From Chiloscyllium plagiosum (taxonomy: Eukaryota), in NCBI RefSeq assembly GCF_004010195.1, contig NC_057760.1:2030386-2094385 (forward strand): 64,000 nucleotides of DNA, read 5' to 3'. Both the position numbers and the translations under genes were made by a program. Below, piece by piece: positions 10,035-55,484 of the stretch. Numbering within the stretch: the stretch's first letter is position 1; each line of letters begins with the position of its first letter. A model generated the notes under the pieces. It was not told the origin of the DNA. It made no database searches and was given only the letters and a program-made list of their open reading frames with translations.

Positions 10035-10420
10035 TTAAATCTTTCCCCTCTCACCCTAAACCTATGCCCTCTAGTTCTGGACTCCCTCTCCTCAGGGAAA
10101 ATACCTTGTCTGTTTACCCTATCCATGCCCCTCATAATTTTATAAACCTCTCAGGTCACTCCTCAGCCTCTGACACTGCAGGGAAAACAGCCCCAGTCTA
10201 TTCAGCCTCTCCCTGTAGCTCAAAACCTCCAACTTGGCAACATCCTTGTAAATCTTTTCTGAACCCTTTCAAGTTTTAAAACCTCCTTCCAATGGGAGGG
10301 AAACCAGAATTGTACACAATATTCCAAAAGGGGCCTAACCAATGTCCTGTACAGCCGCAACATGACCTCCCAACTCCTGTACTCAATGCACTGACCAATA
10401 AAGGCAAGCATTCTAAGCAT
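10035..10420 (-). mobile_element. CR1/HER1 LINE 3' fragment
   Basis: LAFIGQCIEYRSWEVMLRLYRTLVRPLLEYCVQFW...ERVQKRFTRML. Confidence 0.9.
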
Positions 10421-10494
10421 ATGGAGGAAAATTTTCAGATTTTATTACCCAGTAGCTTAATTCTAACATTATACTCCCTCCTACTGATTCTCGA

Positions 10495-10997
10495 ATCTGG
10501 TCTCCTTCCTATCAGAAGGATGTTGTGAAACATGAAAGGGTTCAGAAAAGATTTACAAGGATGTTGCCAGGGTTGGAGGATTTGAGCTACAGGGAGAGGC
10601 TGAACAGGCTGGGGCTGTTTTCCCTGCAGCGTCGGAGGCTGAGGGGTGACCTTATAGAGGTTTATAAGATCATGAGGGGCATGGATAGGGTAAATAGACA
10701 AGGTCTTTTCCCTGGGGTGGGGGAGTCCAGAACAAGAGGGCATAGGTTTAGGGTGAGAGGGAAAGTATATAAAAGAGACCTGAGGGGCAGCTTTTTCACG
10801 TAGAGGGTAGTACGTGTATGGAATGAGCTGCCAGACGAAGTGGTCGAGGCGACATTTAAAAGGCATAAATGAATAAGAAGGGTTTGGGGAGATATGGGCC
10901 GGGTGCTGGCAAGTGGGACTAGATTGGGTTGGGATATCTGGTCGGCATGGACAGGTTGGACCGAAGGGTCTGTTTCCGTGCTGTACATCTCTATGAA
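10495..10997 (+). mobile_element. CR1/HER1 LINE 3' end
   Basis: ERVQKRFTRMLPGLEDLSYRERLNRLGLFSLQRRRLRGDLIEVYKIM and tail ctgtacatctctatga. Confidence 0.92.
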
Positions 10998-11248: not shown

Positions 11249-11326
11249 TGACATGACGGTTGTATGACGTACCTACAAATCACAACTCGGTCTCTCTACC
11301 TCCCCCTACTGAACAGTCTCATCAGT

Positions 11327-12129
11327 TAAAAATCACACAACACCAGGTTAGAGTCCAACAGGTTTAGTTGGAAGCACTAGCTTTCGGAGCGCTCTCCTTC
11401 ATCAGGTCATGATTTGGAGACGCCGGTGCTGGACTGGGGTGTACAAAGTTATAAATCACACAATACCTGGTTATAGCCCAACAGGTTTATTTGGCAGCAC
11501 TAGCTTTCGCAACCCTATTACAGCGCTCCGAAAACTAGTGTGCTTCCAATTGAACCTGTTGGACTATAACCTGGGGTTGTGTGATTTATAACTTTGTACA
11601 CCCCAGTCCAACACCGGCATCTCCAAATCATCACAGGGAGTTAACACCTTCAATACCTTATCTGGGCCGGCATGACACCAATTGTTAAAGTGCACTTGAG
11701 AATGTAACATTTAAAAGGGTTTTGCTATTTACATATGAAAGAACTGACACCAACATGGTCATTCTAAAAGATGAGAGACTTAACAAACAATCTGGGTCTT
11801 TTTCAATATATAATTTCAGTTACATCACACTGTAAACTTTTGTTATAAATTCTGTGTCTTACAATCTTATTCTCCACAAACACCTGATGAAGGAGCAATG
11901 CTCTGAAAGCTAGTGCTGCCAAATAAACCTGTTGGGCTATAACCAGGTATTGTGTGATTTCTAACTTTGTACACCCCAGTCCAACACCGGCATCTCCAAA
12001 TCATGACCAGATGAAGGAGCAGCGCTCCGAAAGCTAGTGCTTCCAAATAAACCTGTTGGACTATAACCTGGTGTTTTGTGATTGTTAACTTTGTACACCC
12101 CAGTCCAACACCAACGTCTCCAAATCATG
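11327..12129. mobile_element. Penelope-like (family A) composite insertion: inverted and tandem terminal repeats of about 124 bp with hammerhead cores, 12-bp TSD
   Basis: Two minus-orientation units (11324-11510) and three plus-orientation units (11521-11630 partial, 11881-12006, 12007-12130); TSD AGTCTCATCAGT at 11315-11326 and 12130-12141. Confidence 0.85.
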
Positions 12130-12583
12130 AGTCTCATCAGTACCTGACTCGTAATTTACTCACAATAAATTGCACCTGTATTTCAATTTTACTTTGTCAA
12201 CCCTCCCAAGTCACTTAATGGAGGTTATTAAACCAAACTTGACACTGACCCACATCAGGGGTCTCTATTTGGTCTCAGAAATAGTTTTTTGACAAGTGAC
12301 ATAAAGGAGTAGAGATGAAAATGTTTGGGTTGGGAATTCCAAATCTAGCACCAAGGCAGCAGAAGGCACCTTTGGTGGGGTAATTAAAGTCGAAGATGGT
12401 TAAGAAGCCAGAATTGAAGAGACAGAGAGATATTGAACAGTTAGGCCTGGAGGAAGGTTCAGAGACAGGGATGGGTAACACCATAGAGGTATTTAAAAAC
12501 AAGGGTGAGAAATTCATATTTGTGCTATCCTTGAACCAGGTACAAAAGCAAGTGATACAGGAGTGGTGGATGAACAAGACTTG

Positions 12584-12757
12584 GAGTCGAGAGTGTGGTG
12601 CTGGAAAAGCACAGCAGGTCAGACAGCAACCGAGGAGCAGGAGAATCGGCGTTTTGGGCAAGAGCCCTTCATCAGGATTCTGACCTGACCTGCTGTGCTT
12701 TTCCAGCATCACACTCTCGACTCTGATCTCCAGCATCTGTAGTCCTCACTTTCTCCT
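12584..12757. mobile_element. Penelope-derived (family B) fold-back insertion with decayed hammerhead
   Basis: 39-bp inverted arms at 12584-12622 and 12685-12723; minus strand reads CTGATGAagggctcttgcccAAAACGCC. Confidence 0.75.
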
Positions 12758-13164
12758 AGTAAATTGGGATACAGCAATTGGATGAATTTAATTTTATGGA
12801 AATGGAAAAAGAAAGATTTAAATCATAAACAATCTGACAATGATGGATCAGCTTTTAATAGTGCACCAGAAATTTGAGAAATGCATAAAATAAAATTTCT
12901 TGCACCCAGATTTGTGATTTACCAAGCAATCTACTCTGTACATCTCAGATTTTAACCCACCTCCACCAGCTGGGTTCCACAACTGTACTTGATTTTCTTG
13001 TGCTGCTGAACCAGAGCTCCAGTGATGTCCATGAGAAAGCTCAGCTGTGACAGCAAGGTAAGGCTTGGATATACGGTCTCCAACATACACTGTGTCAGGA
13101 TCTCAACTGTAGGTAAGTCCCCATTAAACTAAGGAAGGCTAAAAGCAGTAAACAGAAGTAAACC

Positions 13165-14370
13165 AAAGAACTGCAGATGCTGGAAATCAGAAACAAAAAT
13201 AGAAAATGCTGGGAAAACTCAGGAGATCTGGCAGCATTTGTACAGAAAAAGCATAGTTAACATTTGGGTTTACTGCTTTCTTTAGAATTGAGCTAGAAAA
13301 AGGTTGGTGTATATGCTGAAGAGTGCGGGGAGTGGGGAAGGAGTAAACGATCGGTAGAGATGGAGCCCAGAGACGGAAAGATAGTTGGGCAGGCAAAGGA
13401 ATTGGGTACAGGTCACCCTGGGAGAATCAATGGCTTCTAAGGGACCATCGGTATCTGACAATGGTCATATGTGGTAGCTGCCCATGTGATGACAAGGTTT
13501 GGTGTATGTGGGGATTGGCTGAAAGATGTGGGAGAAGACTATAAAATTATTGAACTTGATATTGAGTCCCAAAGGCTGCAGAGTCCCCAAGTGGAAAACG
13601 AAATGCTGTTCTTCTAGCTTGTGCTGAGCTTTGGAACACAGTGGTGAGATGAAGTGGCAGTCAAAGGGAAGCTCACAGTCATTTTTGTAGACAGAAGGTA
13701 GGTGTTCTGCAAAGCAGACATCCAGTCTACGTTTTGTCTCCCCAGTGTAGAGGAGATCACATTGTGAGGAGCAAATACGGTAGACTACATTGAGTGAAGT
13801 GCAAGTAAATCAGTGCTTTACCTGGAAGGTATGTCTAGGTGTGTCTTGGATGATGAGGAAGGAGGAAGTAAACTGGCAGGTCATTTTCTGTGATTGTTTG
13901 GGAAGATGCTGTAGGAGTATGAGGAAGTGTTGGGTGTGGAGGAGTGGACCAGGGTGACCCGGGAGGAAAGATCCCTGTGGAAGACTGACAAGCAAAGGGA
14001 AGGGAATTTGTGAAGTGGTAGCATCCAGCTGGAGGTGGCAGAAAAAAGGTGGCTAATCATCCTTTGGATGTGGATGCTTGTGGGATGGTAAGTGAGAACA
14101 AGGGCACCCTGTCATCGTGTGTGAAGGAGGAGAAAGGGTGAGGACAAAGTGGAGAAGATGGTCAGATATGGGTCACCTAAAGTGGCGGGAATCCTGGGCT
14201 GAGAAGGAAGGTGGATATTTTGGGGGGCCCCCTGTAGAAGCTGGTATAATCAGAACAGATGCGATGGTGATGCAGAAACTTGGACAATGGAATAGAGTCT
14301 TCACTGGAAGCGGGGTGTGAGGACTTATAGTTAAGGTAACTGTGGGAGTCAGTGGATTTGTAATGGATTG
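13165..14370 (-). mobile_element. Penelope-like element 3' portion (GIY-YIG region and terminal repeat), decayed
   Basis: Collinear and similar to 22555-23760. Confidence 0.75.
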
Positions 14371-17300
14371 TAAGCTAAACTCAGGTCTGTTCAAATTCTG
14401 AAGGGTTTGTTTCCACTCGCTCTGGTTTTCAGGATTAGAGACCCTCATCCTGGATTTGTTCAGCAGATTTTTAAAGGAACTTGATGGCTTAGATTTTTTT
14501 TTAGAAGGAATAAAAGCTAACTCTAAGCAATCTGACTTTATGATTTAATACTTTCAGCACCGGACTTATTTTGCCTCCTTCCCGTCTATTCCAGAGCTAT
14601 AAAGCACAATACTGAACAGTACTCTGATGGTATCCTTTTTAGATTCCAGTCCCTTTGAGTTATAACAACTTCAAGTTCTCAGTGAGAATAAATAGTCAGA
14701 GACTCCATTTAGTTTCTAAAGCCTTTAATGAATATCCTTCGATATGATGACCCCTTAGCTTGAAGTCCAAGGCACTTTGTACAGTGAACAGTTTTAAACC
14801 ATTGATTAGACCTTGTCTGATTTTGGCTATAACAACACTGCACATATGACCAAAACAAAGCCAAGAACCAGATGGAGATGGAAAGTGGATGACCAAGCAA
14901 CATATTAGATGTCTGCAATCATTGTCAACAAATCTCAGCTTGTACCTGTGTGCACACTGCTAGTCTGATGGTGGGAAAAGAAGTTGGAGAAACTAGAAAA
15001 TAAATTATTTTCAGCTCAGCAACATCTCTGCATCCACATTCTTGTCAATTTGTATGATCTACTCTTGCAGACTGATAGCCATTTTTAGTGTACAACACTA
15101 GGCCTCATTATCCCAAACTAGTAGCCATGTATAGTTTACATGAATTGATCTAAATTTTGCAGGTTGGTAGCTATTTATAGTGTAGCTCTTTTGATTTCAT
15201 TGACCCAAACTTGCAGCCCAGTGTGGTACTGAAAGATATAGAGCAGGAAGGATTCCGTTTCAATTATTAATCTGTAATGAGTTAGTTGAACCTTAGCAGG
15301 GTCAACAATGGAGCATAACTATTTATCTTGGCATTTTTGGGAGTATAGCAGAAGAAAAGCAGGGTTCCCACTACTGAGCACTACCCCCTTTTTCATAGTC
15401 CCTTTTTCTGCAAGTCATGTCAGTTGGATGAAGATTGAACTTAGCCATGACACTTCTCATGGTTAATGTGGAACACATGGAATGATTCCAGAGCAAGAAA
15501 GAGCCTACCAAGGGTGCTAAAAGAGTGTTCCCTTTAGGATGACTTGAACATTCTGATAAAATCTAAACAACATATATGGAGGATAAACACCAGCATAAAC
15601 TATTTCTGTGCTCTAAAATTCAATGAAATATAATGGACACATTTGCTCCCAGGCACTATTAGGAACTAGATTGTAAACCAGGAGATCAATGATCACACAT
15701 GAGATCAATGAAACCAATTGTTTAATTCCATGGAAACACACATTATCCTGTCCTAAATTGGCAATCAGTAGATGACACAGGATTTGGAGGGCTCATTAGA
15801 TAATGGGGCCACAGATTTTCTTATCCCAAAATATAACCCAGTTACCGGGTTCAGAAACATAATCTCCAGTTTTCAACTTCCTTCCCACTTTGCTGACACT
15901 TGGTGGGGAACACACTTAGAATTAGATCCCAACCGCTGCTCCCTCACCTAGTTGGCTGATTTCCACATAAGCCTTGGCAGTGATGAGCATCACCAATCCA
16001 AGTCTAGTCATTTGATGTCCTCACATACCCACAGTCCTTTCTCACTATGTAGTGATGAAAGGCAGCAGGTCTTGTTGTTGAAGTCCCTTCTCAGTCTGGG
16101 AGTCACAGGTCCAACTGTAACACTTCTGTCATTGCTCCAATGAAATTAAACTAATTCATTACGGACCAAGCTGGAAACTGGGATCCACTCTGGCTCAGTA
16201 TTGCACTGGGGAGGCTGTTTGAATTCAGGTTTCAGGACAGTTCTGTGCCTTGGTTTTGTCTTAATATAAATGAGTGGCATATATATGATATATATTGTTG
16301 CCAGTCAAATGACAGGAAGCAACTTGTACAGACACCCTTAATTACCTGCAGAAAGTAGTTCAAATTAGATCTCTGGATAACAGAAGAATGGTATTTATTA
16401 TAAAAGTCAAATATTGCAGATGCTGGAAGTGTGAAATAAAAAAAAACAGAAATGCTGGAAATACTCAGATGTTCTGGCAGTCTCGTGGAGAAGGAAAAAG
16501 AGTCAACATTTTGAGTCAAATGTGACTCTTCTTCGGAATGGTATTTTTATTCCGCTTTTAATCAATGTGACTTAGAAGGGATGAAGCACTTTTTAAAATA
16601 CTTTAGCTGAAGCACTTTTTAAAATACTTTTAAATTTACCATACAGATAAAAAAATAAAAAAAACTCTATGAATCTGACCAAGGTAAGGGTATTTGGATA
16701 TTGCAAACAGCTTTCCAGACAGTTTACAGAAGGATAATTCTAGCTTTTAAGCCGTGCAAATCTAAACAAGTCATTGTTATGTAGCCTGCTATAGATTGTT
16801 ACCTGATTTTCTCTGTGCTGTTAGTCATAGTTTGTCACTGCCTTTATCATTATCCTGCTTTGCAGATCTGTATCCTTGTTCCTTTCCATGTCATTGGCCT
16901 TCTTCATTCATTTGAGATGAAACTGGACACAGGAAGGGACGTGAAACAGGAGGGGTTGAATACCTCATTCGATATACCCCACATCCAGTGTTGATTGTTA
17001 CTGGACTGAAAGTCAGGAGGAGTGTTTACAGGCCACCTCCGAACAGTTCTCATTGTTCCTCCCAAATACCAAATCTCCTTACCCATGTTTCCATCCTTCA
17101 TGTAGGTGAAATCCAGTTTCACCACACTGTCTCCTATTTCTCATCCTTTCCCCAGGATCGCAACTCATATCTTTGCCCATGACCATCCTCCCTGCTTTAT
17201 TTTTCCACTAATGTTTCTATCTATTTTTATCACTTTTCTTCAGATTCCATTTCCCTCTTTCACTCACAACCTCTTTCTATTAGGTCTCTGAGACTTTTAA

Positions 17301-21985: not shown

Positions 21986-22267
21986 CTAACAACTGCTGGA
22001 ACTGGTGCAAGGAGTTGGGAAGGAGGGGGAGCTGAGTCCCAGTTGGCTGTCAGAGCGCTGGGAGTCACCATGTGTACTGCCAGCTTCAGTGATAGCGCTG
22101 AGGATCTGCTGCTGCTGTTGCTGCAGGGTGTCAGCGATCAGTCTTGGCAGGGCATGGAAGCTGCTCGTCAGTCCCTCCAACTTGTTCTCCAGGCTCATTA
22201 TCTGCTTCTCCAGGTCTTCACCTCGATCGTTCAGCTCTGTGATTAGGTCATACATGATCGTCTGCAT
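21986..22267 (-). CDS. KCNN3: KCNN3 (SK3/KCa2.3 small-conductance Ca2+-activated K+ channel) terminal coding exon
   Basis: [23 protein letters not shown]...[11 protein letters not shown]...[12 protein letters not shown] matches the recalled SK3 C-terminus ([23 protein letters not shown]...SFPTPYTSSSSC); cccag acceptor immediately upstream, so the Met is not a start codon. Confidence 0.93.
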
Positions 22268-22554
22268 CTGGGTTGCACATATACAATAAAAGCAGTGAAA
22301 TTTAGTTTGGAATGACCAGCATGCGTCCTACCTTCACCAATGCTGCTTCACCAAAATCACAAACTCCTAACTCCTTAACATCACCCATCTCTGCCCCTTC
22401 CTTATTCAGTCTGCAATAGAAACCCTCATTAATGGACTCAGGCTAGTTCATTGCTTCTACGGTCAGTCTGCTAACTTCTGTAACTGTGGGTCATCCAAAT
22501 TTCTGTTTCCCATATCCTAAATCGCACGATATCCCATCCACCCAACCCTCACAG

Positions 22555-24620
22555 GTCTAAAACAAAAACAAATTTCGAGGGAAACTTATCAAGTTGGCAG
22601 CATCTGTGGAGAGAAAGCAGAATTAAAGTTTTAGGTCCAGTTATCCTTTTCAGAACTGATGATAGCTCAGAAAGGTTAGTATATATACTGAAGATAGAGT
22701 GGGGTGAGGGAGGAGTAAACAATGGGTGGAGGTGGAGCCCAGAGAGAGAGAAAAGCACTTGTGCAGACAAAGGAATGGGTAGAGGTCAGCCTGGGAGAAT
22801 CATGGCTGCTAATGGGGACCATCAGTAGCTGACAATGGGTTGTATGTGGTAGCAGCTCATGTGATGACAAGGCTTGGTCATGAGGGTTGAGGTAAGGACG
22901 AAGGAAAAAATTCTCAAGTTCTAAAATTACTGAACTTGGTGTTGAGTCTGGAAGGCTGCAGGGTACCAAAGCAGAAAATGAGATGCTATTCTCCCAGCTT
23001 GCACTGAGCTTCATTGGAGCACTACCGCAAGCCCAAGATAGAGATGTTGGCCAGGGAACACGATGGTGTGTTGAAATGACAGGTAACAGGAAATTCAGGG
23101 TCATGTTTGCAGAAATAACTGGTCATCCAGTCTGCATGTCATCTCACCAATGTAGAGAAGACCACATTGTGAGTAGAAAATACAATAAACTACACTGAGT
23201 GAAGTGCAAGTAAATCACTGCTTTACTTGGAAGTTGTGTCTGGGGTTTTGGATTGTGAATAGGGCAGAAGAACACAGGCAGGCATTGCACCATCTGTGAC
23301 TGCATGGGAAGGTGTCATGGGGGTGTGGGAAAGTGTTGCAGTGGATGATGAGTGGACCAAGTTGTCCCAAAGGTAATGGTCCCTGTGGTAGGCTGACAAG
23401 AGAGGGGAAAGGAATATGTGTCTCGTTGTGGTACCCAGCTGGAGGTGACGCAAATGGCAGTTAATCATCCTTTGGATGTGGATGCTGTGGGGTAGTAAGT
23501 GAGGACCAGGGGACCCTGTCACTGTTGTGGGAGGGAGAAGAATGAGGGCTGAAGTGTGAGAGATGGGTTGGATATAACTGAAGGCCCTGTCAACCATAGT
23601 GATGGGGAATCCTCAGTTAAGGAAGAAGGTGGACATCTTGGAAGCCCCCTTATAGAAGGTGGCATCATCAGAACAGATGTGACGGCGATGGAGGATCCGG
23701 GAGAATGGAATAAAGTCCCACAGGTACCTGTGGGAGTTGGTGGGTTTGTAGTGGATATTTACACCATTCTGAGGAATGATCACTCCAAACGTTAACGCTG
23801 ATTTCTCTCCACAGATGCTGCCAAACCTGCGGAGCTTTTCCAGCAATTTCTGTTTTTGTTCCTGATTTACAGCATCTGCAGTTCTTTTGGGTTTTTTTGT
23901 AGTGGATATTGGTGGCCAGCTTATCCCCAGAAATGGAGACAGAGATGTTGAGGAAGGGAAGGGAGGAGTCAGAGATGGACCAGGTGAAGGTAAGAGCAGA
24001 GTAAAAATTGGAAGTGAAAGTGATAAACTTTCCTAATTCCAGAGTGAGGGAAGCAGCACCAATACTGTCATCAATCCACTGGAGAAAGAGTTGTGGGGAA
24101 GGGATTGAATAGGACTGGAACAAGGAATGTTCCACATATCCCACAAGGAGACAGGCATAACTGGGACCCATGTGAGTACCCATGGCCACACCTCTGACCT
24201 GAAGATATTGAGAGAAGTTAAAGAGGCAGTTGTTCAAAGTGAGGGTGTGCTCAGCTAGGTGGAGGAATGGGACAGTTCAGGCCCCTTTTTTTTCCAGGAA
24301 AAAGTAGTGAGCCCCAAGACAATCCTGGTGGGGAATGGACCTGTAAAGGGATTACATGTCCATGCTGAAGAGGAGGTAGCTGGAGCCCCCAAACTGGAAG
24401 CTTTGAAACTGACTTAAAGTTTCAGAAAAATCATGGATATAAATGGGAAGGGACTGGCCAAGTGGGGAAAAAAATTGAGTCAAGGTAGAAAGAGATGAGT
24501 TCTGTAGGGATTTTGGGAAGGAGGTAGAAACCACCTATGCAGGGTTGAGGGCAGACTATAGGCTTGGAGGCAATGGGGTGAGATCATCAGATAGAATGAG
24601 ACTAGTGACCATTGTGGACA
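22555..24620 (-). mobile_element. Penelope-like element, RT and GIY-YIG remnant
   Basis: YLQVRGVAMGTHMGPSYACLLVGYVE...WIDD RT motifs at 24237-24065; downstream CGLLYIG-type endonuclease remnant near 23150; terminal repeat near 22555-22660. Confidence 0.88.
23760..23895 (+). mobile_element. Solo Penelope terminal repeat nested antisense within a Penelope element, 15-bp TSD
   Basis: TTTGTAGTGGATATT at 23745-23759 and 23896-23910; body 'ccacagatgctgcc...cagcatctgcagttc'. Confidence 0.8.
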
Positions 24621-25649
24621 TGCCTCACACTGATATCTGGTCTGGCAAAACTGCAGTTTTTAATTTTTCAACCTCCTGGTCAAACCCCTTTATAGTCACA
24701 CCTCCTTTCTCTGCCCCATAATCTTCTCTTGATTCCTCTAATTTTGAACTCTTGTGTACATGTATTCACTTTCGCTTTGCTTGCTATTCATAGCCATGCC
24801 ATCATCTACCCAGCTACAAAACTCTGGAATTTCCTTGCTAAACCTCCCTGTCCCCTCCTTTAAGCTGCACCTTAAAACAGATGTCTTTGACTGGGCTTTT
24901 GCTCACCTGCCCTAATATCCCCTTATGCAGCTCAGTGTCAAATTTGTTAGATAACATCCTTGTGCAGTGCCATGGCATGCTTTACTAATGTTAAGGGTGC
25001 TACATAAATTCAAGTAGCTGTTTTTTGGTGCATTCTAGAACATAACAACATATTATGTAAAAAAAAAGTTGTCGTCTCCTCTTATGTTCTACCTAAAGCA
25101 ATTACCAGAAGGTGTGAGAGCGTCGTTAGCATTTGCTGTTTGCCTTTAAGATTTGTACCCTCTGCAGACTTTACTTGTTTTTTGCCATGAACTGAGTTAA
25201 ACAGCTTGAGGAATCCTTTCTCCATGAGTAGACTCTGCTGTTGTTGAGATGGCGATTCTTGACATAGACTCTGGATCACCAAAGAAAGAAAATTCTCCAC
25301 TCTTGACACTAAAGTTGCCCTATCCGGGCCACAGCAAAAATTTGGAACTTTAAAAAGGTGTTGGTTCAATTGGGATAGCCCATTGTAATTCACATTGGAA
25401 ACCTCATGGTGGCATCATACACTTATGAAATTAATCAGAGGCCCTGGCTCCTCTTAAACCTGAACACTTCACAACATAGCACCATTAATCTGAGAGGTGG
25501 CTAGCAACAGAGAGAAATGGCAACATGCCAGCCACTGCACTGATATATCCTGCTTTGTTGCTGACTCCCTACTGTATATTTCAAATTGTAACTGCCCCCA
25601 CATTTGTTCCACTTTACTATAGGTTCCTCCCCTTCCATTGTGTGACCAC

Positions 25650-28408: not shown

Positions 28409-30099
28409 GCTGTACAGCTCTATGACTTTAAAGAACAAAGCTTTTCACTGTAACCTGGGTACGTGACAATCGTAAATCAAATTAAATCCTCCCACCCCAC
28501 CCAAATGGATTGATCTAACAAATCAGCATCCTCCTCTCATGCAGGACATAAATGACTGTTTTGCCCTTAAAGTGGTATTCTTGCAAAGTGTCCTGATGAG
28601 AACAAGATTAAAGACTTCTGCAAGAAGTGCCTTATTTCAGCAGGTTCTGTGCAACCACAATTTCTCATTTAACAATGGGACCAGGAATAAAGCAGATTTA
28701 AGGGGTGGCTCACCATTACCATTTTAAGGATAGGGTGAAGGGTGGGTGATAGATACAAGCAAAGTCCTGCCAACTGAGAATTTTATTTTTCAAAGTTCTG
28801 TTTCTTGTGACTGTTGTTCGGACCACAACCTTGGAAAAGCATCAGTTGCTTGTAGAGGATAAAATATTTAAGTTCTCAGGGGAAAAAAAAAAGCAGTTAA
28901 CTTACCATTCTCAGTCACTGCATCCCGGTTTTTGGAAATTTGACATTTGGCAATCAGAATCCCAAAGTCCAGTCGCAAAGAGAGGCAGGAACAGAAGCAG
29001 TTTGTTAGACTTGAAAAGACAGTTTACAAATGTGAAGAATTTTCATATAAAGATCTTCCTCTCTGTTCAGATATTTCTAGCAAAAGGAAATGGACAAAAT
29101 CTGATTTTATTTACATATAACCACCCCCCTCCACTTAATTCCCTTCAAGTCTCATAAACCTGCACCTCATCTGGCATCTCTCCAACTGTTGGCAAACTCA
29201 GTAAAGACGGACAATTCTGCAGGACTTGGAGGGGTGAAGTGCTGATGGTGTGGATGAATTGCTAAGGACTAGCACCATTCTGATGGCACAAATGGCCTTT
29301 CTTTGGCTGCTCCCTTCCCTTTGACATTGCTGCTGCTCCTGGAACATGCCTGATGAGGTGGGAGGCAGACAGCTACATTTGCAAAGGTCAGTTACCAGCC
29401 ACTACCAGCAAATTCAGCAGAAAAATTGGATAATCTTTAGGAAAAACATCCAAAAAGTTCATACTCCCTTGTTACCCCGAATATAAACACACATCATTTA
29501 CCCAAGAATGTACAAAAATAAATTTTATTTCAGTATGAGAACAGAGCTACCTTAATCTAACATCAACCCATGTACCATGTTCAGTTTGATTTTAGTTACA
29601 AGTAAACATTTATAGTTGTATAAAGAATGCAGTGTTGACTGCTACAGAGGACATGCAGGTTTAGTAAAAGGCTCCAGACCTCTCAGTAACTCCTTATTAA
29701 TATTAAACTTCCTCCCTCTTCAAAATTCCAACCAGTAATGGGATTTCTTTATCAAAGTGACAATTACAAACTTTGAACATTACGCCAAACAGTGTTTAGT
29801 TTTTCCTTTGGAACGATGAAAAACTGTAAGGTTAATGACATCCTTTTCTCAATTTACTCGTTCACAATTCCAAATGGTAAACAGTTTTGCAGCCCATGTA
29901 AATTACAGTACTGTCAGAGCGGTCATTAACATGGATGTGTCTTCAATTGCGACATCATAAACAAAAATAGACAATACAAATAAAAAAAAGACTAACAATC
30001 TCAAAGATTGTCCTACAAAACCCAAATTTCATGACACACAAGAAATGCACAGGTGTTTTTTTTTTAAAGATTCAATTATTACTACGACTTTGCTACACA

Positions 30100-30234
30100 G
30101 TCAGAAATTACACAACACCAGGTTATAGTCCAACAGGATTATTTGAAATCACAAGCTTTCGGAGCGTTGCTCCATCATCAGGTGTCGTATGACTTCTGAC
30201 TTTGTCCACCCCAGTCCAACACTGTGTCCTGACA
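30100..30234 (-). mobile_element. Solo Penelope family A repeat with near-intact hammerhead core
   Basis: Minus strand CAC-CTGATGA-t-GGAGC-aac-GCTCC-GAAAGCTT-GTG at 30184-30150. Confidence 0.8.
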
Positions 30235-50943: not shown

Positions 50944-51119
50944 ATTAGCTACAATCTTCACCTCCTTGTACTGAGCCTCATAAAAGATCTCTGCATTTTC
51001 GAGTGCTTCGATCAGCGGTGGGGTCTTCTTCACCTCCCTCTCGAGCTCGGCACAGAAGTCTTCCAACTTGGAGCTGGATTCTTCAAAGTCTTTGGAAAAG
51101 CGTTTGCCTCCAGCACGAT
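50944..51119 (-). CDS. RPRD2: RPRD2 coding exon (176 nt; DRAGGKRFSKDFEESSSKLEDF...EALENAEIFYEAQYKEVKIVAN)
   Basis: tgtag acceptor, gtaagt donor; matches 'EALENAGIFYEAQYKEVKVVAN'; phase 1 to 0. Confidence 0.95.
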
Positions 51120-51611
51120 CTACACAGACAGAAAGAATGAGGGGCTCCTGTGACTGAACAAATTACCAGCAAATCGGGGCTGCTCTGAAGCAGGGAAAGC
51201 CCAGCGTGAATTAACCAAGAAAGCAGGTCTGGACAATCTATTATGAAGAGGAGATACAGGGTTACCAACTCTGAGTGGATGGCTAGACTAAATGAATGAG
51301 TGCTTTCTCCTGCAAAGCTGGGTTATAAAATTTTATTGAAGGGTTCAAGACGATCCCAAAAACACACGAGGGACATTCAATGAGAGCAACAAATGACAAG
51401 TAACATACATATCTTAAAAAACGATATAGAGTAGCATTAAAACATTGCAAATGTCCATATTTGTTGTCCCTAAACTACAGACTGTGATGACTTTTGGTCA
51501 CGTATACTATCAATACTCTTGCTTTTTTAAACAATTCAGACCAAGGGTGTGGGCATCATTGGCCAGGCCAGCATTTTATTGTTCGTCTCTAATTGACCAT
51601 GGAAAAGATTA

Positions 51612-51832
51612 AAGTTGAAACTTTATTGCTGGAACAGCACAGCAGGTCAGGCAGCATCCAGGGAACAGGAGATTCGACGTTTCGGGCACAGGCCCTTCTT
51701 CAGGCATTCCTGAAGAAGGGCCTGTGCCCGAAACGTCGAATCTCCTGTTCCCTGGATGCTGCCTGACCTGCTGTGCTGTTCCGGCAATAAAGTTTCAACT
51801 TTGATCTCCAGCATCTGCAGACCTCACTTTCT
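51612..51832. mobile_element. Young Penelope-derived (family B) palindromic insertion with intact minimal hammerhead, 15-bp TSD
   Basis: Arms 51611-51704 and 51709-51802 (94 bp, one mismatch), 4-nt spacer; TSD CCATGGAAAAGATTA at 51597-51611 and 51833-51847. Confidence 0.9.
51706..51741 (+). ncRNA. Minimal type I hammerhead ribozyme motif
   Basis: ATTC-CTGAAGA-A-GGGC-ctgt-GCCC-GAAAC-GTC-GAAT: stem I ATTC/GAAT, stem II GGGC/GCCC, GUC cleavage triplet, palindromic ACGT stem III. Confidence 0.7.
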
Positions 51833-53039
51833 CCATGGAAAAGATTATGTTGGGACTTGTTCTTGTTCATTTGCTGTTGGTAGATCCAGAGTATCGTCAA
51901 GGGGGGAATTCCAAGGTCTAGCCGCACTGAAGGAATGGACAACATATTTCCGAAAATCTAAGGATGCTGGAAATCAGAAAACACTGGAAAAAACTTGCAG
52001 CTGCTGACAGAAACAGGGTTAACGTTTCAAGTCTAGTGAACCTTCTTTCCCACCATTTTCTAACATACTTCCAAGTCAGGACGGTGCGCGGCTTGGAGGG
52101 GAACTTGCACGGGGTGGTGTTTCCAACGTACCTTGTCTTTCCAAGGTTTAGTGTTTGCAGAGTTAGATACTGTTGGCAAAGCTGCCTTGCTGAGCTAGTG
52201 CTATTTAAATAAAAAGGATCAATTATGGGCTGTGTGTTACTGGCAGAGCCCGTATTTATTGCCATTGTAACTGTCTTCGCTGCCACAATATTTGGCTGGC
52301 TTATGAATTATTCTGCAGTTTCCAGGTTATATTAAGTACAACATCACTGCAGTTGTTCAAAAGGAGTTTTGTGTAGCACTGCAATTGCAGATTGCAACCA
52401 CTGGGTAGCACCATATCCCACTGTACCCAACACAGTGAGAAACAGCAAAGGAGCCAATGCATTGTACAGACTGGGAGGAGTGTGCAGTAGGGTCAGCATC
52501 ACTTGTGAAGGATGCTGGGGAGGGTAGACGTGTGTGAAAGGGCAGCAGTGAGAGAAGATTTTAAAAACAACAGAGAACCCCTTCAACCAGCTTTCACTGG
52601 TCAGAGCTGAATTCAATTGTCACTGGAACACAGGTAGGTGACTGATGGGTATTTCGTCCTTGTCTTTTTTTGAATGGCCAAGTGATTTAAGTCGTGAGAT
52701 GGTTATTACAGCTGAAGAGTGTAGTGAGAAGATTTACTTTTAAAATATTTAACGTATAAACTCATTAAATTGAACAGAGATGGCTAGATCGGCAATGCGT
52801 TGCAGCTGCAGTATGTAGGCGCTGGTGGACACTGGTGCATTCGATTGGGTTTTTTCAGATTGGGATGAGGTAACCCGTAAACTGTTACAGGACTCTAATC
52901 TAGGTTCTTTTTTATTAATAATGTTAATGATCTGAAAGCCAAGGCAGAGTTTAATATCTATATTTGTTGACAACACAGAAAGATGTTATGAAGAGGGTGC
53001 AAGCAATCTGCAAAAAAGATTTGTTGCTTGTGGACAAGA

Positions 53040-54830: not shown

Positions 54831-54956
54831 TTTTATTCAAATCAAAAGGAGGGCATGCATGCAAGCTAATGATAAACGTAAGGTTCAAAGCCCCTCCCCA
54901 GTGTTCCGCAACCATTCATTAGGTTAATTTGCTGCATGCCAATTTCTGCACTCTAC

Positions 54957-55083
54957 CTTTCAACCGTTTCAATGTCTCTGTGCTGCAAACGTCCACGCGG
55001 AGGGTCCCAAGCTGCTTCTCCTTGAACTCTCTCTCATCCTCAGCTTGTTTGTAGGACCCGAGCTGGTCAATCAGTGCCTGAGG
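54957..55083 (-). CDS. RPRD2: RPRD2 coding exon (127 nt; PQALIDQLGSYKQAEDEREFKEKQLGTLRVDVCSTETLKRLK)
   Basis: ctgcag acceptor, gtagag donor; matches RPRD2 coiled-coil region 'KEKQLSTMRVDVCSTETLKCLK'; phase 0 to 1. Confidence 0.95.
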
Positions 55084-55484
55084 CTGCAGTGGGGGGGAAA
55101 GTACAAGTCAGATTCTGTCGAAGTGATGGCCCCCAAAACAAGCCCCCTGTGGCAATTAACACTAAATACTATAACGTGACAGTCAGACAAAGGACCAAAG
55201 AAAAACTGCAAAGGTAAATGTAAGCTGCGAGGTTTATATATTTTCCCACCTGACAGCTATAACTCAGTGGCAGCACTCATTTCTGAGTCATAAGGCTATA
55301 GGTTAGAATTTGACTGTATAATCCAGGCTGAGCCTGCCTGTCCTCCCATAAGGGCTTGAACAAAGTCCTACATCATTATTTTTAAAGCACAGAGTGCACC
55401 CCTCCAACACCCAGCAATCTCAACAAAGGACAACATGAACTTCCTGAGAGAGTGGTGGATGCGGGGCGGGGGACGGGGGGGGGA

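Follow-up and report, generated by a model that had tools for sequence, protein, structure and literature searches.

The 221-bp insert at positions 51612-51832 of the window (the whole 64,000-nucleotide stretch of Chiloscyllium plagiosum DNA that was analysed) very likely derives from a Penelope-like element (PLE) and consists of two copies of its terminal repeat (pLTR), which bears a hammerhead; both are truncated at the 5' end and stand head to head between target site duplications (TSDs), probably as the result of one retrotransposition event. Sequence comparisons suggest a one-off product of insertion, generated by a very large family, rather than a palindromic element that moves as a unit. 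Directly visible are the anatomy of the insert, its membership of the family, the very large size of this family, and the combination of variable centres with fixed outer ends.

Anatomy of the insert and its host intron

The insert is flanked by an exact 15-bp TSD (CCATGGAAAAGATTA), a 15-mer that is found at only two sites in the whole 64-kb window and on a single strand. Its length and its flanking duplication were confirmed as originally predicted. Within the insert, two arms of 93 bp each (51612-51704 and 51709-51801) differ by a single mismatch (51630/51783) and enclose a 4-nt centre. The original prediction of two 94-bp arms around a 4-nt spacer was correct with respect to the one mismatch and the size of the centre. 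It has to be amended in three points: an arm length of 94 bp is reached only when the last TSD base is included, a 31-bp tail had been omitted, and the centre (CATT) is part of the direct copy because family reads upstream of 51705 carry other sequence. Arms and centre account for 190 bp (93+4+93), and the residual 31 bp form a tail on one side only. This one-sided tail is the key diagnostic feature of the insert. Copies of the family stop at 51834, and the last CC is therefore common to tail and TSD. The insert contains no ORF. Coordinates of all features are compiled in Table 1.

As had been proposed, the host gene is RPRD2, encoded on the minus strand, and the insert is intronic. The last RPRD2 exon is 95% identical to a Hemiscyllium protein and 85% identical to the whale and zebra shark proteins, and the insert lies between the two coding exons given in Table 1, approximately 490 nt from the nearest one. 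In a Pfam search with seven short exon and remnant translations a single match was obtained, which was below the cut-off; the identity of both the gene and the PLEs was taken from protein comparisons instead. The same intron harbours, 110-290 bp from the insert, the remnant of an old PLE terminal repeat (minus strand) and a fragment of another high-copy repeat (51955-52060 and 52068-52123).

Table 1. Features of the insert, its host intron and related loci in the window (positions refer to the window).
Feature	Position	Strand	Remarks
Left TSD, 15 bp	51597..51611	+	5 of the last 6 bases match the continuation of the element, and the remaining one would form a G-T wobble with the RNA template
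Inverted, tail-less PLE terminal-repeat copy, 93 bp	51612..51704	-	5' end 1 nt ahead of the hammerhead CUGA box
Minimal hammerhead motif, RPRD2-sense copy	51672..51707	-	C3 at 51703, C17 at 51676
Centre CATT, 4 nt	51705..51708	+	first four bases of the direct copy, no separate spacer
Direct PLE terminal-repeat copy	51705..51801	+	5' end 5 nt ahead of the CUGA box
Minimal type I hammerhead motif	51706..51741	+	definition according to PMC4209133
PLE tail, 31 bp, one-sided	51802..51832	+	sharp family end at 51834; loose ends behind 51834 in 268, 312 and 290 contigs
Right TSD	51833..51847	+	exact 15-bp copy
RPRD2 coding exon downstream of the host intron	50944..51120	-	
RPRD2 coding exon upstream of the host intron	54952..55089	-	tblastn limits
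Older same-family copy, 82-84%	12584..12756	.	inverted tail-less arm and more deeply truncated direct arm with tail; other centre; no clear TSD
Decayed PLE	13160..14371	-	RT/GIY-YIG remnants 14371-13552, then arm-homologous repeat (z 12.0, 0/1000 shuffles)
Decayed PLE	22540..24621	-	RT then GIY-YIG ORF 24621-22932, then weakly homologous terminal repeat (z 4.3, 2/1000 shuffles as high)

The repeat family and the age of the insert

The arms belong to a very abundant repeat family. Four public runs, three of DNA type and one of RNA, were aligned to positions 51676-52500. In the three DNA-type runs 19,739, 28,724 and 15,892 contigs matched this stretch, and the RNA run contributed 1,284 reads. 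Summed depth was in the millions at 51704-51843 as compared to approximately 8 on the unique flank (runs X1 and X2), a figure that does not represent a copy number. Beyond the sharp end of the family, the copies continue into flanks that are AT-rich and unlike each other.

Decayed ORFs matching the reverse transcriptase (RT) and C-terminal GIY-YIG protein P0121 (Pfam RVT_1 and GIY-YIG) were located at 24621-22932, 14371-13552 and 6264-5841. The first two are followed by repeats homologous to the arm, and a further arm-homologous repeat was inserted within the first of these PLEs at 23760-23900 (z 13.8). The repeat behind the third remnant belongs to another family (z 0.1 versus the arm). Given that arm-homologous repeats stand behind RT/GIY-YIG remnants, the arm was assigned as the hammerhead-bearing pLTR of a PLE. 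An ORF-attached copy of the exact subfamily of the insert was not found in the window; the link to the ORFs runs via older homologous repeats, one of which is weakly homologous. The linkage to RT/GIY-YIG remnants and the motif described below support the originally predicted Penelope origin, with a minimal type I hammerhead and a palindromic stem III.

Four loci in the window combine an inverted arm with a tail-bearing arm, and they have four different centres and recurring outer ends. Two of them belong to a second family: at 11324-12130 a tail-less inverted arm and a tail-bearing arm are flanked by a 12-bp TSD, and at 30094-30222 a tail-less inverted arm beginning 4 nt ahead of the hammerhead core is found next to a deeply truncated direct arm, with no clear TSD. 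This second family (11.3-12.1 kb) was considered as a relative of the arm and dismissed, as no homology was detectable (z 1.6). Further joints in read contigs connect 51696-51703 to 51746, 51784, 51794 and 51811 (among the 15 of 48 joints listed; the aligned stretch can reveal only left arms that end near 51696-51704). As the centres vary while the outer ends are fixed, the palindrome appears to have been built at insertion, and its original description as an element in its own right found no support.

If the palindrome were a dedicated non-autonomous element that carries a ribozyme on each strand and is transcribed and retrotransposed as a whole, this would account for the clean TSD, the near-perfect arms and the fact that both arms begin at the hammerhead edge. 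Moreover, the junction of 51703 to 51811 reached a summed depth of 460 in X1 and 264 in X2, and some junctions may be multi-copy. Such an element is nevertheless very unlikely: centres are unlike each other at all four window loci and among the contig joints, the summed depth of the left-arm bin amounts to approximately 1.5-3% of that of the direct arm, and the RNA of such an element would be a perfect hairpin with a paired core. Barely credible is the possibility that the palindrome is a fold-back artefact of sequencing or assembly. While none of the contig pieces listed (24 of 65,682) crosses the exact centre, and an N gap is present elsewhere in the window assembly, an artefact would yield neither an exact 15-bp TSD nor a one-sided tail ending where other copies end, nor an arm mismatch that equals a family variant. 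In addition, the tail-flank junction is present in X2, and older, diverged copies show the same layout.

Several other repeat structures were observed in the window and in the runs. The complex insertion at 11315-12141 (approximately 800 bp) belongs to the second family, which likewise bears a hammerhead, and comprises an inverted tandem-junction copy and a direct stub; added to these are two pLTR units in head-to-tail order and approximately 250 bp from the upstream part of the element. Its inverted part mirrors 11905-12090 including the junction, and the template RNA was therefore probably already tandem. An older head-to-head PLE palindrome at 1335-1660 is homologous to the family of the insert (z 12.2); its centre is near 1527, approximately 75 nt upstream of a decayed hammerhead, unlike in the younger families. 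A head-to-tail junction of 51834 to 51706 (tail end, eight extra letters, hammerhead start) was found with a summed depth of 84.5 in X1 and 74.1 in X2, and retrozyme-like tandems of the insert's family probably exist elsewhere in the genome. In the RNA run X21, 164 reads exit the tail at 51833 into one common flank (agreement 0.9); an abundant poly(A) transcript seems to contain a family copy from another locus. An inverted pair of LINE-like 3' fragments, which we take to be of the CR1 type, is located at 10148-10657 (arms of 86 and 74 bp, approximately 90%). Finally, a stop-free frame on the minus strand (21986-22327) resembles the C-terminal exon of a neighbouring gene; its product is coiled-coil-like and ends with PTSSSSC.

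The presence of the insert was compared between runs X1 and X2, flank coverage of the related organism B (X11) being sparse. Record 7 of X1 (338 nt) begins to match at 51833, where the right TSD starts, and shows 0 differences from there on, while its 51 leading letters depart from the tail; from this record we infer an empty site in the X1 sample. Record 23 of X2 (308 nt, three other letters) starts at 51812 and includes 21 nt of the tail, the TSD and the flank, which indicates a filled site in the X2 sample; its tail overlap of 21 letters is below the 31-letter bridging rule, and the records stem from 24 of 65,682 pieces. Relative to the depth at 51757, the subfamily-specific segment at 51790 reached 5.6% in X1, 16% in X2 and 0.001% in organism B (90% likeness). 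This near-absence of the subfamily from organism B argues for a young copy. Thus, both youth and likely polymorphism, as stated in the original prediction, are supported, the former by the subfamily depth in organism B and the latter by the empty-like and filled-like contigs, and the data point to a young subfamily with a segregating insertion. Derivation of an age from the single arm mismatch was rejected because G at 51783 occurs in the family as a standing variant (1.7-5.2% of summed depth) and the 95% upper bound is 5%. Although the flanks are equally deep in both runs, the summed depth of the subfamily-diagnostic segment 51788-51792 in X2 exceeds that in X1 by a factor of approximately 2.5; this excess could reflect a copy-number difference between individuals or an assembly effect.

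Hammerhead motifs and the predicted hairpin

Hammerhead cores (CTGAAGA..GAAACGTC) begin at 51710 on the plus strand and at 51703 on the minus strand. The descriptor of the minimal type I hammerhead (CUGAnGA, stem II, GAAA, palindromic minimal stem III, NUH, stem I) is complete in the plus copy, which consists of stem I (51706-51709/51738-51741; ATTC/GAAT), CUGAAGA (51710-51716), an unpaired A (51717), stem II (51718-51721/51726-51729), GAAA (51730-51733), the palindromic ACGU, and C17 at 51737. The minus copy has a G-A mismatch in stem I, a consequence of the arm being cut within this stem. The predicted difference between a full plus and a mismatched minus stem I was thus correct. A ribozyme core on both strands had also been predicted; there is indeed one core on each strand, yet each transcript contains only one and therefore no dimer can form in cis.

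Among the variable sites listed within 51710-51737 (51714, 51722 and 51724), all fall on free hammerhead positions (p approximately 0.003-0.006). This confinement to free positions implies that the core is kept under selection in the source elements. An Rfam search of the whole window returned no family at gathering score. Within 51500-52200 seven weak matches were obtained, none of them to a hammerhead model; six of them concerned generic miRNA hairpins and one an lncRNA region, none reached the gathering score, and all were discarded as hairpin artefacts. The published form of the minimal hammerhead is set by a descriptor and not by Rfam models. A 30-letter motif was found neither in metagenome contigs nor in viral contigs (0 matches each). 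As a weak test of cleavage after C17, the read ends of the poly(A) single-cell RNA run were considered, and no pile was listed.

The minus-strand hairpin was predicted to fold with -215.1 kcal/mol (z -27.8), and none of 200 shuffled sequences was equally stable. In the predicted fold of the RPRD2-sense pre-mRNA, each core base is unpaired with a probability of at most 0.003, which agrees with the original proposal of a pre-mRNA hairpin that sequesters the ribozyme. On either strand, the antisense arm is transcribed ahead of the sense core. In RPRD2 pre-mRNA, the single sense hammerhead would thus pair on emerging and never cleave. With the core predicted to be locked shut in the hairpin in this way, the pre-mRNA is not expected to be cleaved.

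Long intronic duplexes and A-C mismatches are favoured substrates of ADAR. With one A-C mismatch (51630) in a predicted 93-bp pre-mRNA duplex, the stem is a plausible ADAR substrate. That the hairpin serves a function for RPRD2, changing its splicing or level through use by ADAR or Dicer, is highly improbable, even more so than an element moving as a unit. The site looks empty in one sample, it lies approximately 490 nt from the nearest exon and represents one of four such structures in 64 kb, and the A-to-G and T-to-C differences in the RNA run were all present in the DNA runs too. A strand-biased T>C difference at 51757 in X21 (30 reads, 4 starts) was rejected as editing because all three DNA-type runs show T>C. 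On the unique flank (51844-51983), X21, sampled at about 2 in 100, reached a depth of 0-0.14. An index search for RNA data sets containing the locus listed none.

Insertion mechanism and relation to known systems

The following events would give rise to the insert. The PLE GIY-YIG endonuclease presumably nicks the two target strands 15 nt apart, and uncleaved PLE RNA would then be reverse-transcribed from each nicked 3' end, which primes at one of two start sites located within the RNA and separated by 31 nt. Priming of the bottom strand would occur at 51832-51834 by a 2-nt match (the CC common to tail end and target), and that of the top strand at 51801, where the last six bases of the target match the continuation of the template at five positions. 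Both cDNAs extend 28-32 nt past C17, and the templates were therefore uncleaved or religated. The two cDNAs would finally be joined without overlap, resulting in a nearly neutral, still-segregating intronic 93-bp hairpin.

Alternatively, the mirror half might have arisen by self-priming, with one cDNA folded back and copied into the inverted arm. Self-priming has been proposed for head-to-head PLE palindromes (PMC3846280), the centre of the insert is near-symmetric (GG-CATT-CC), and GG/CC would close a 4-nt loop. We regard this origin as unlikely. At 12584-12756 and 30094-30222, the tail-less arm has hammerhead sequence that is missing from the tail-bearing arm, whereas the tail is present only in the latter. 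As each arm holds sequence that the other lacks at both loci, neither was copied from the other unless a later deletion occurred. In addition, the single mismatch of the insert is a standing family variant, as expected from two templates, and both strands were primed in vitro (PMC11167929). Two templates are thus favoured, fold-back being the less probable origin of this near-symmetric copy.

The inner ends of the arms are of interest with respect to the start of the template RNA. Among 12 segments of the two younger families in the window, six begin 1-5 nt before the CUGA box, four begin 16-47 nt after it, and two reach 173-252 nt upstream. Two of the six edge starts stem from a single junction that was duplicated. 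With the family-1 reference an extension further upstream would escape notice, although all three edge ends of this family abut another arm. Likewise, 4 of the 12 contig joints listed return to 51706-51707. A template RNA that starts at the hammerhead edge is the simplest reading that these ends suggest. Initiator elements have the consensus YYANWYY. The upstream letters of the family together with CATTCC fit this consensus, but a chance fit is expected at about 1 per 128 positions, so this agreement is weak. In Drosophila virilis, the start of Penelope is well upstream, with an intron in between (PMC4209133, PMC2377424). We also considered whether, as in D. virilis, an intron ends at the hammerhead edge; this was rejected because in neither family does the upstream sequence have an AG in front of the edge.

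We tentatively propose, as a model that has a real chance of being correct but falls somewhat short of being probable, that in a still-active PLE subfamily the 5' end of the RNA lies at the front edge of the hammerhead, so that reverse transcription first gives a 'strong-stop'-like cDNA of 95-130 nt. Both nicked strands would prime on two RNAs, neither cDNA would jump onward, and palindromes would be formed by joining. The origin of tandem and inverted PLE repeats has been called unresolved (PMC8557442, PMC11167929), and the available part of the latter paper is silent on where the cDNAs stop.

The insert is a new example of a known PLE insertion product whose layout has already been published. 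Arkhipova et al. (2013; PMC3846280) described that a pLTR is accompanied by an adjacent inverted one, that one of the inverted pLTRs carries a 31-bp 'tail', and that a TSD as well as abundant head-to-head junctions occur, and Craig et al. (2021; PMC8557442) gave the same insertion picture for PLEs in general. Like EN+ PLE insertion units in these papers, the insert has head-to-head inverted pLTRs, a 31-bp tail (30-40-bp class) on one arm, a TSD, and an inverted arm that is shorter than the direct arm. Unlike them, it has no ORF between the repeats, measures 221 bp overall and resides in a vertebrate (shark) host. Its TSD of 15 bp compares with 8-10 bp in rotifer PLE examples.

Cervera and De la Pena (2014; PMC4209133) defined the minimal hammerhead and described dual motifs 100-700 bp apart on opposite strands, solo motifs tied to truncated PLEs, and cleavage that was absent in monomers and low in dimers. 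With these minimal hammerheads the insert shares a 4-bp stem I, the unpaired base before stem II, the G-C pair closing stem II, and a loopless palindromic stem III. In contrast to the dual motifs, its putative ribozyme cores are approximately 7 nt apart and stem II has 4 bp.

Frangieh et al. (2024; PMC11167929) studied PAc (Poseidon of Anolis) in vitro: each of the two target strands was cut and extended, two RT start sites delimited the tail, and the reaction did not depend on hammerhead cleavage. As in PAc, the tail of the insert is bounded by two fixed ends and the cDNAs extend past the cleavage site, as they would with an uncleaved template. Counted from the start of stem II, the tail ends after approximately 115 nt, which is similar to the 111-118 nt found for PAc. 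The priming site of PAc is non-homologous to the cut DNA, whereas the insert has matches of 2 nt and of 5 of 6 nt at its two ends.

Similar to non-LTR retrozymes (PMC7229834; bioRxiv 10.64898/2026.07.22.740005), the insert is a short, non-coding, PLE-derived repeat with a type I hammerhead. Retrozymes are head-to-tail tandems with at least two same-strand ribozymes (PMC7229834), whereas the insert, being head to head with one core per strand, lacks this arrangement. The literature search, covering the available parts of papers, found none on this shark PLE family; the bioRxiv preprint samples one cartilaginous fish, and its supplements may list the family.

Taken alone, the locus matters little: it is a young, likely segregating intronic retroelement stub that is usable as a presence/absence marker. 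Its value is that of a clean PLE integration product in which both start sites, the junction matches and the stop points are readable. If the stop points mark the 5' end of the RNA, this bears on how PLEs form tandem and inverted repeats. Should the proposed model be true, young polymorphic copies would be a natural record of how the PLE integration cycle proceeds in its second, as yet unresolved half.
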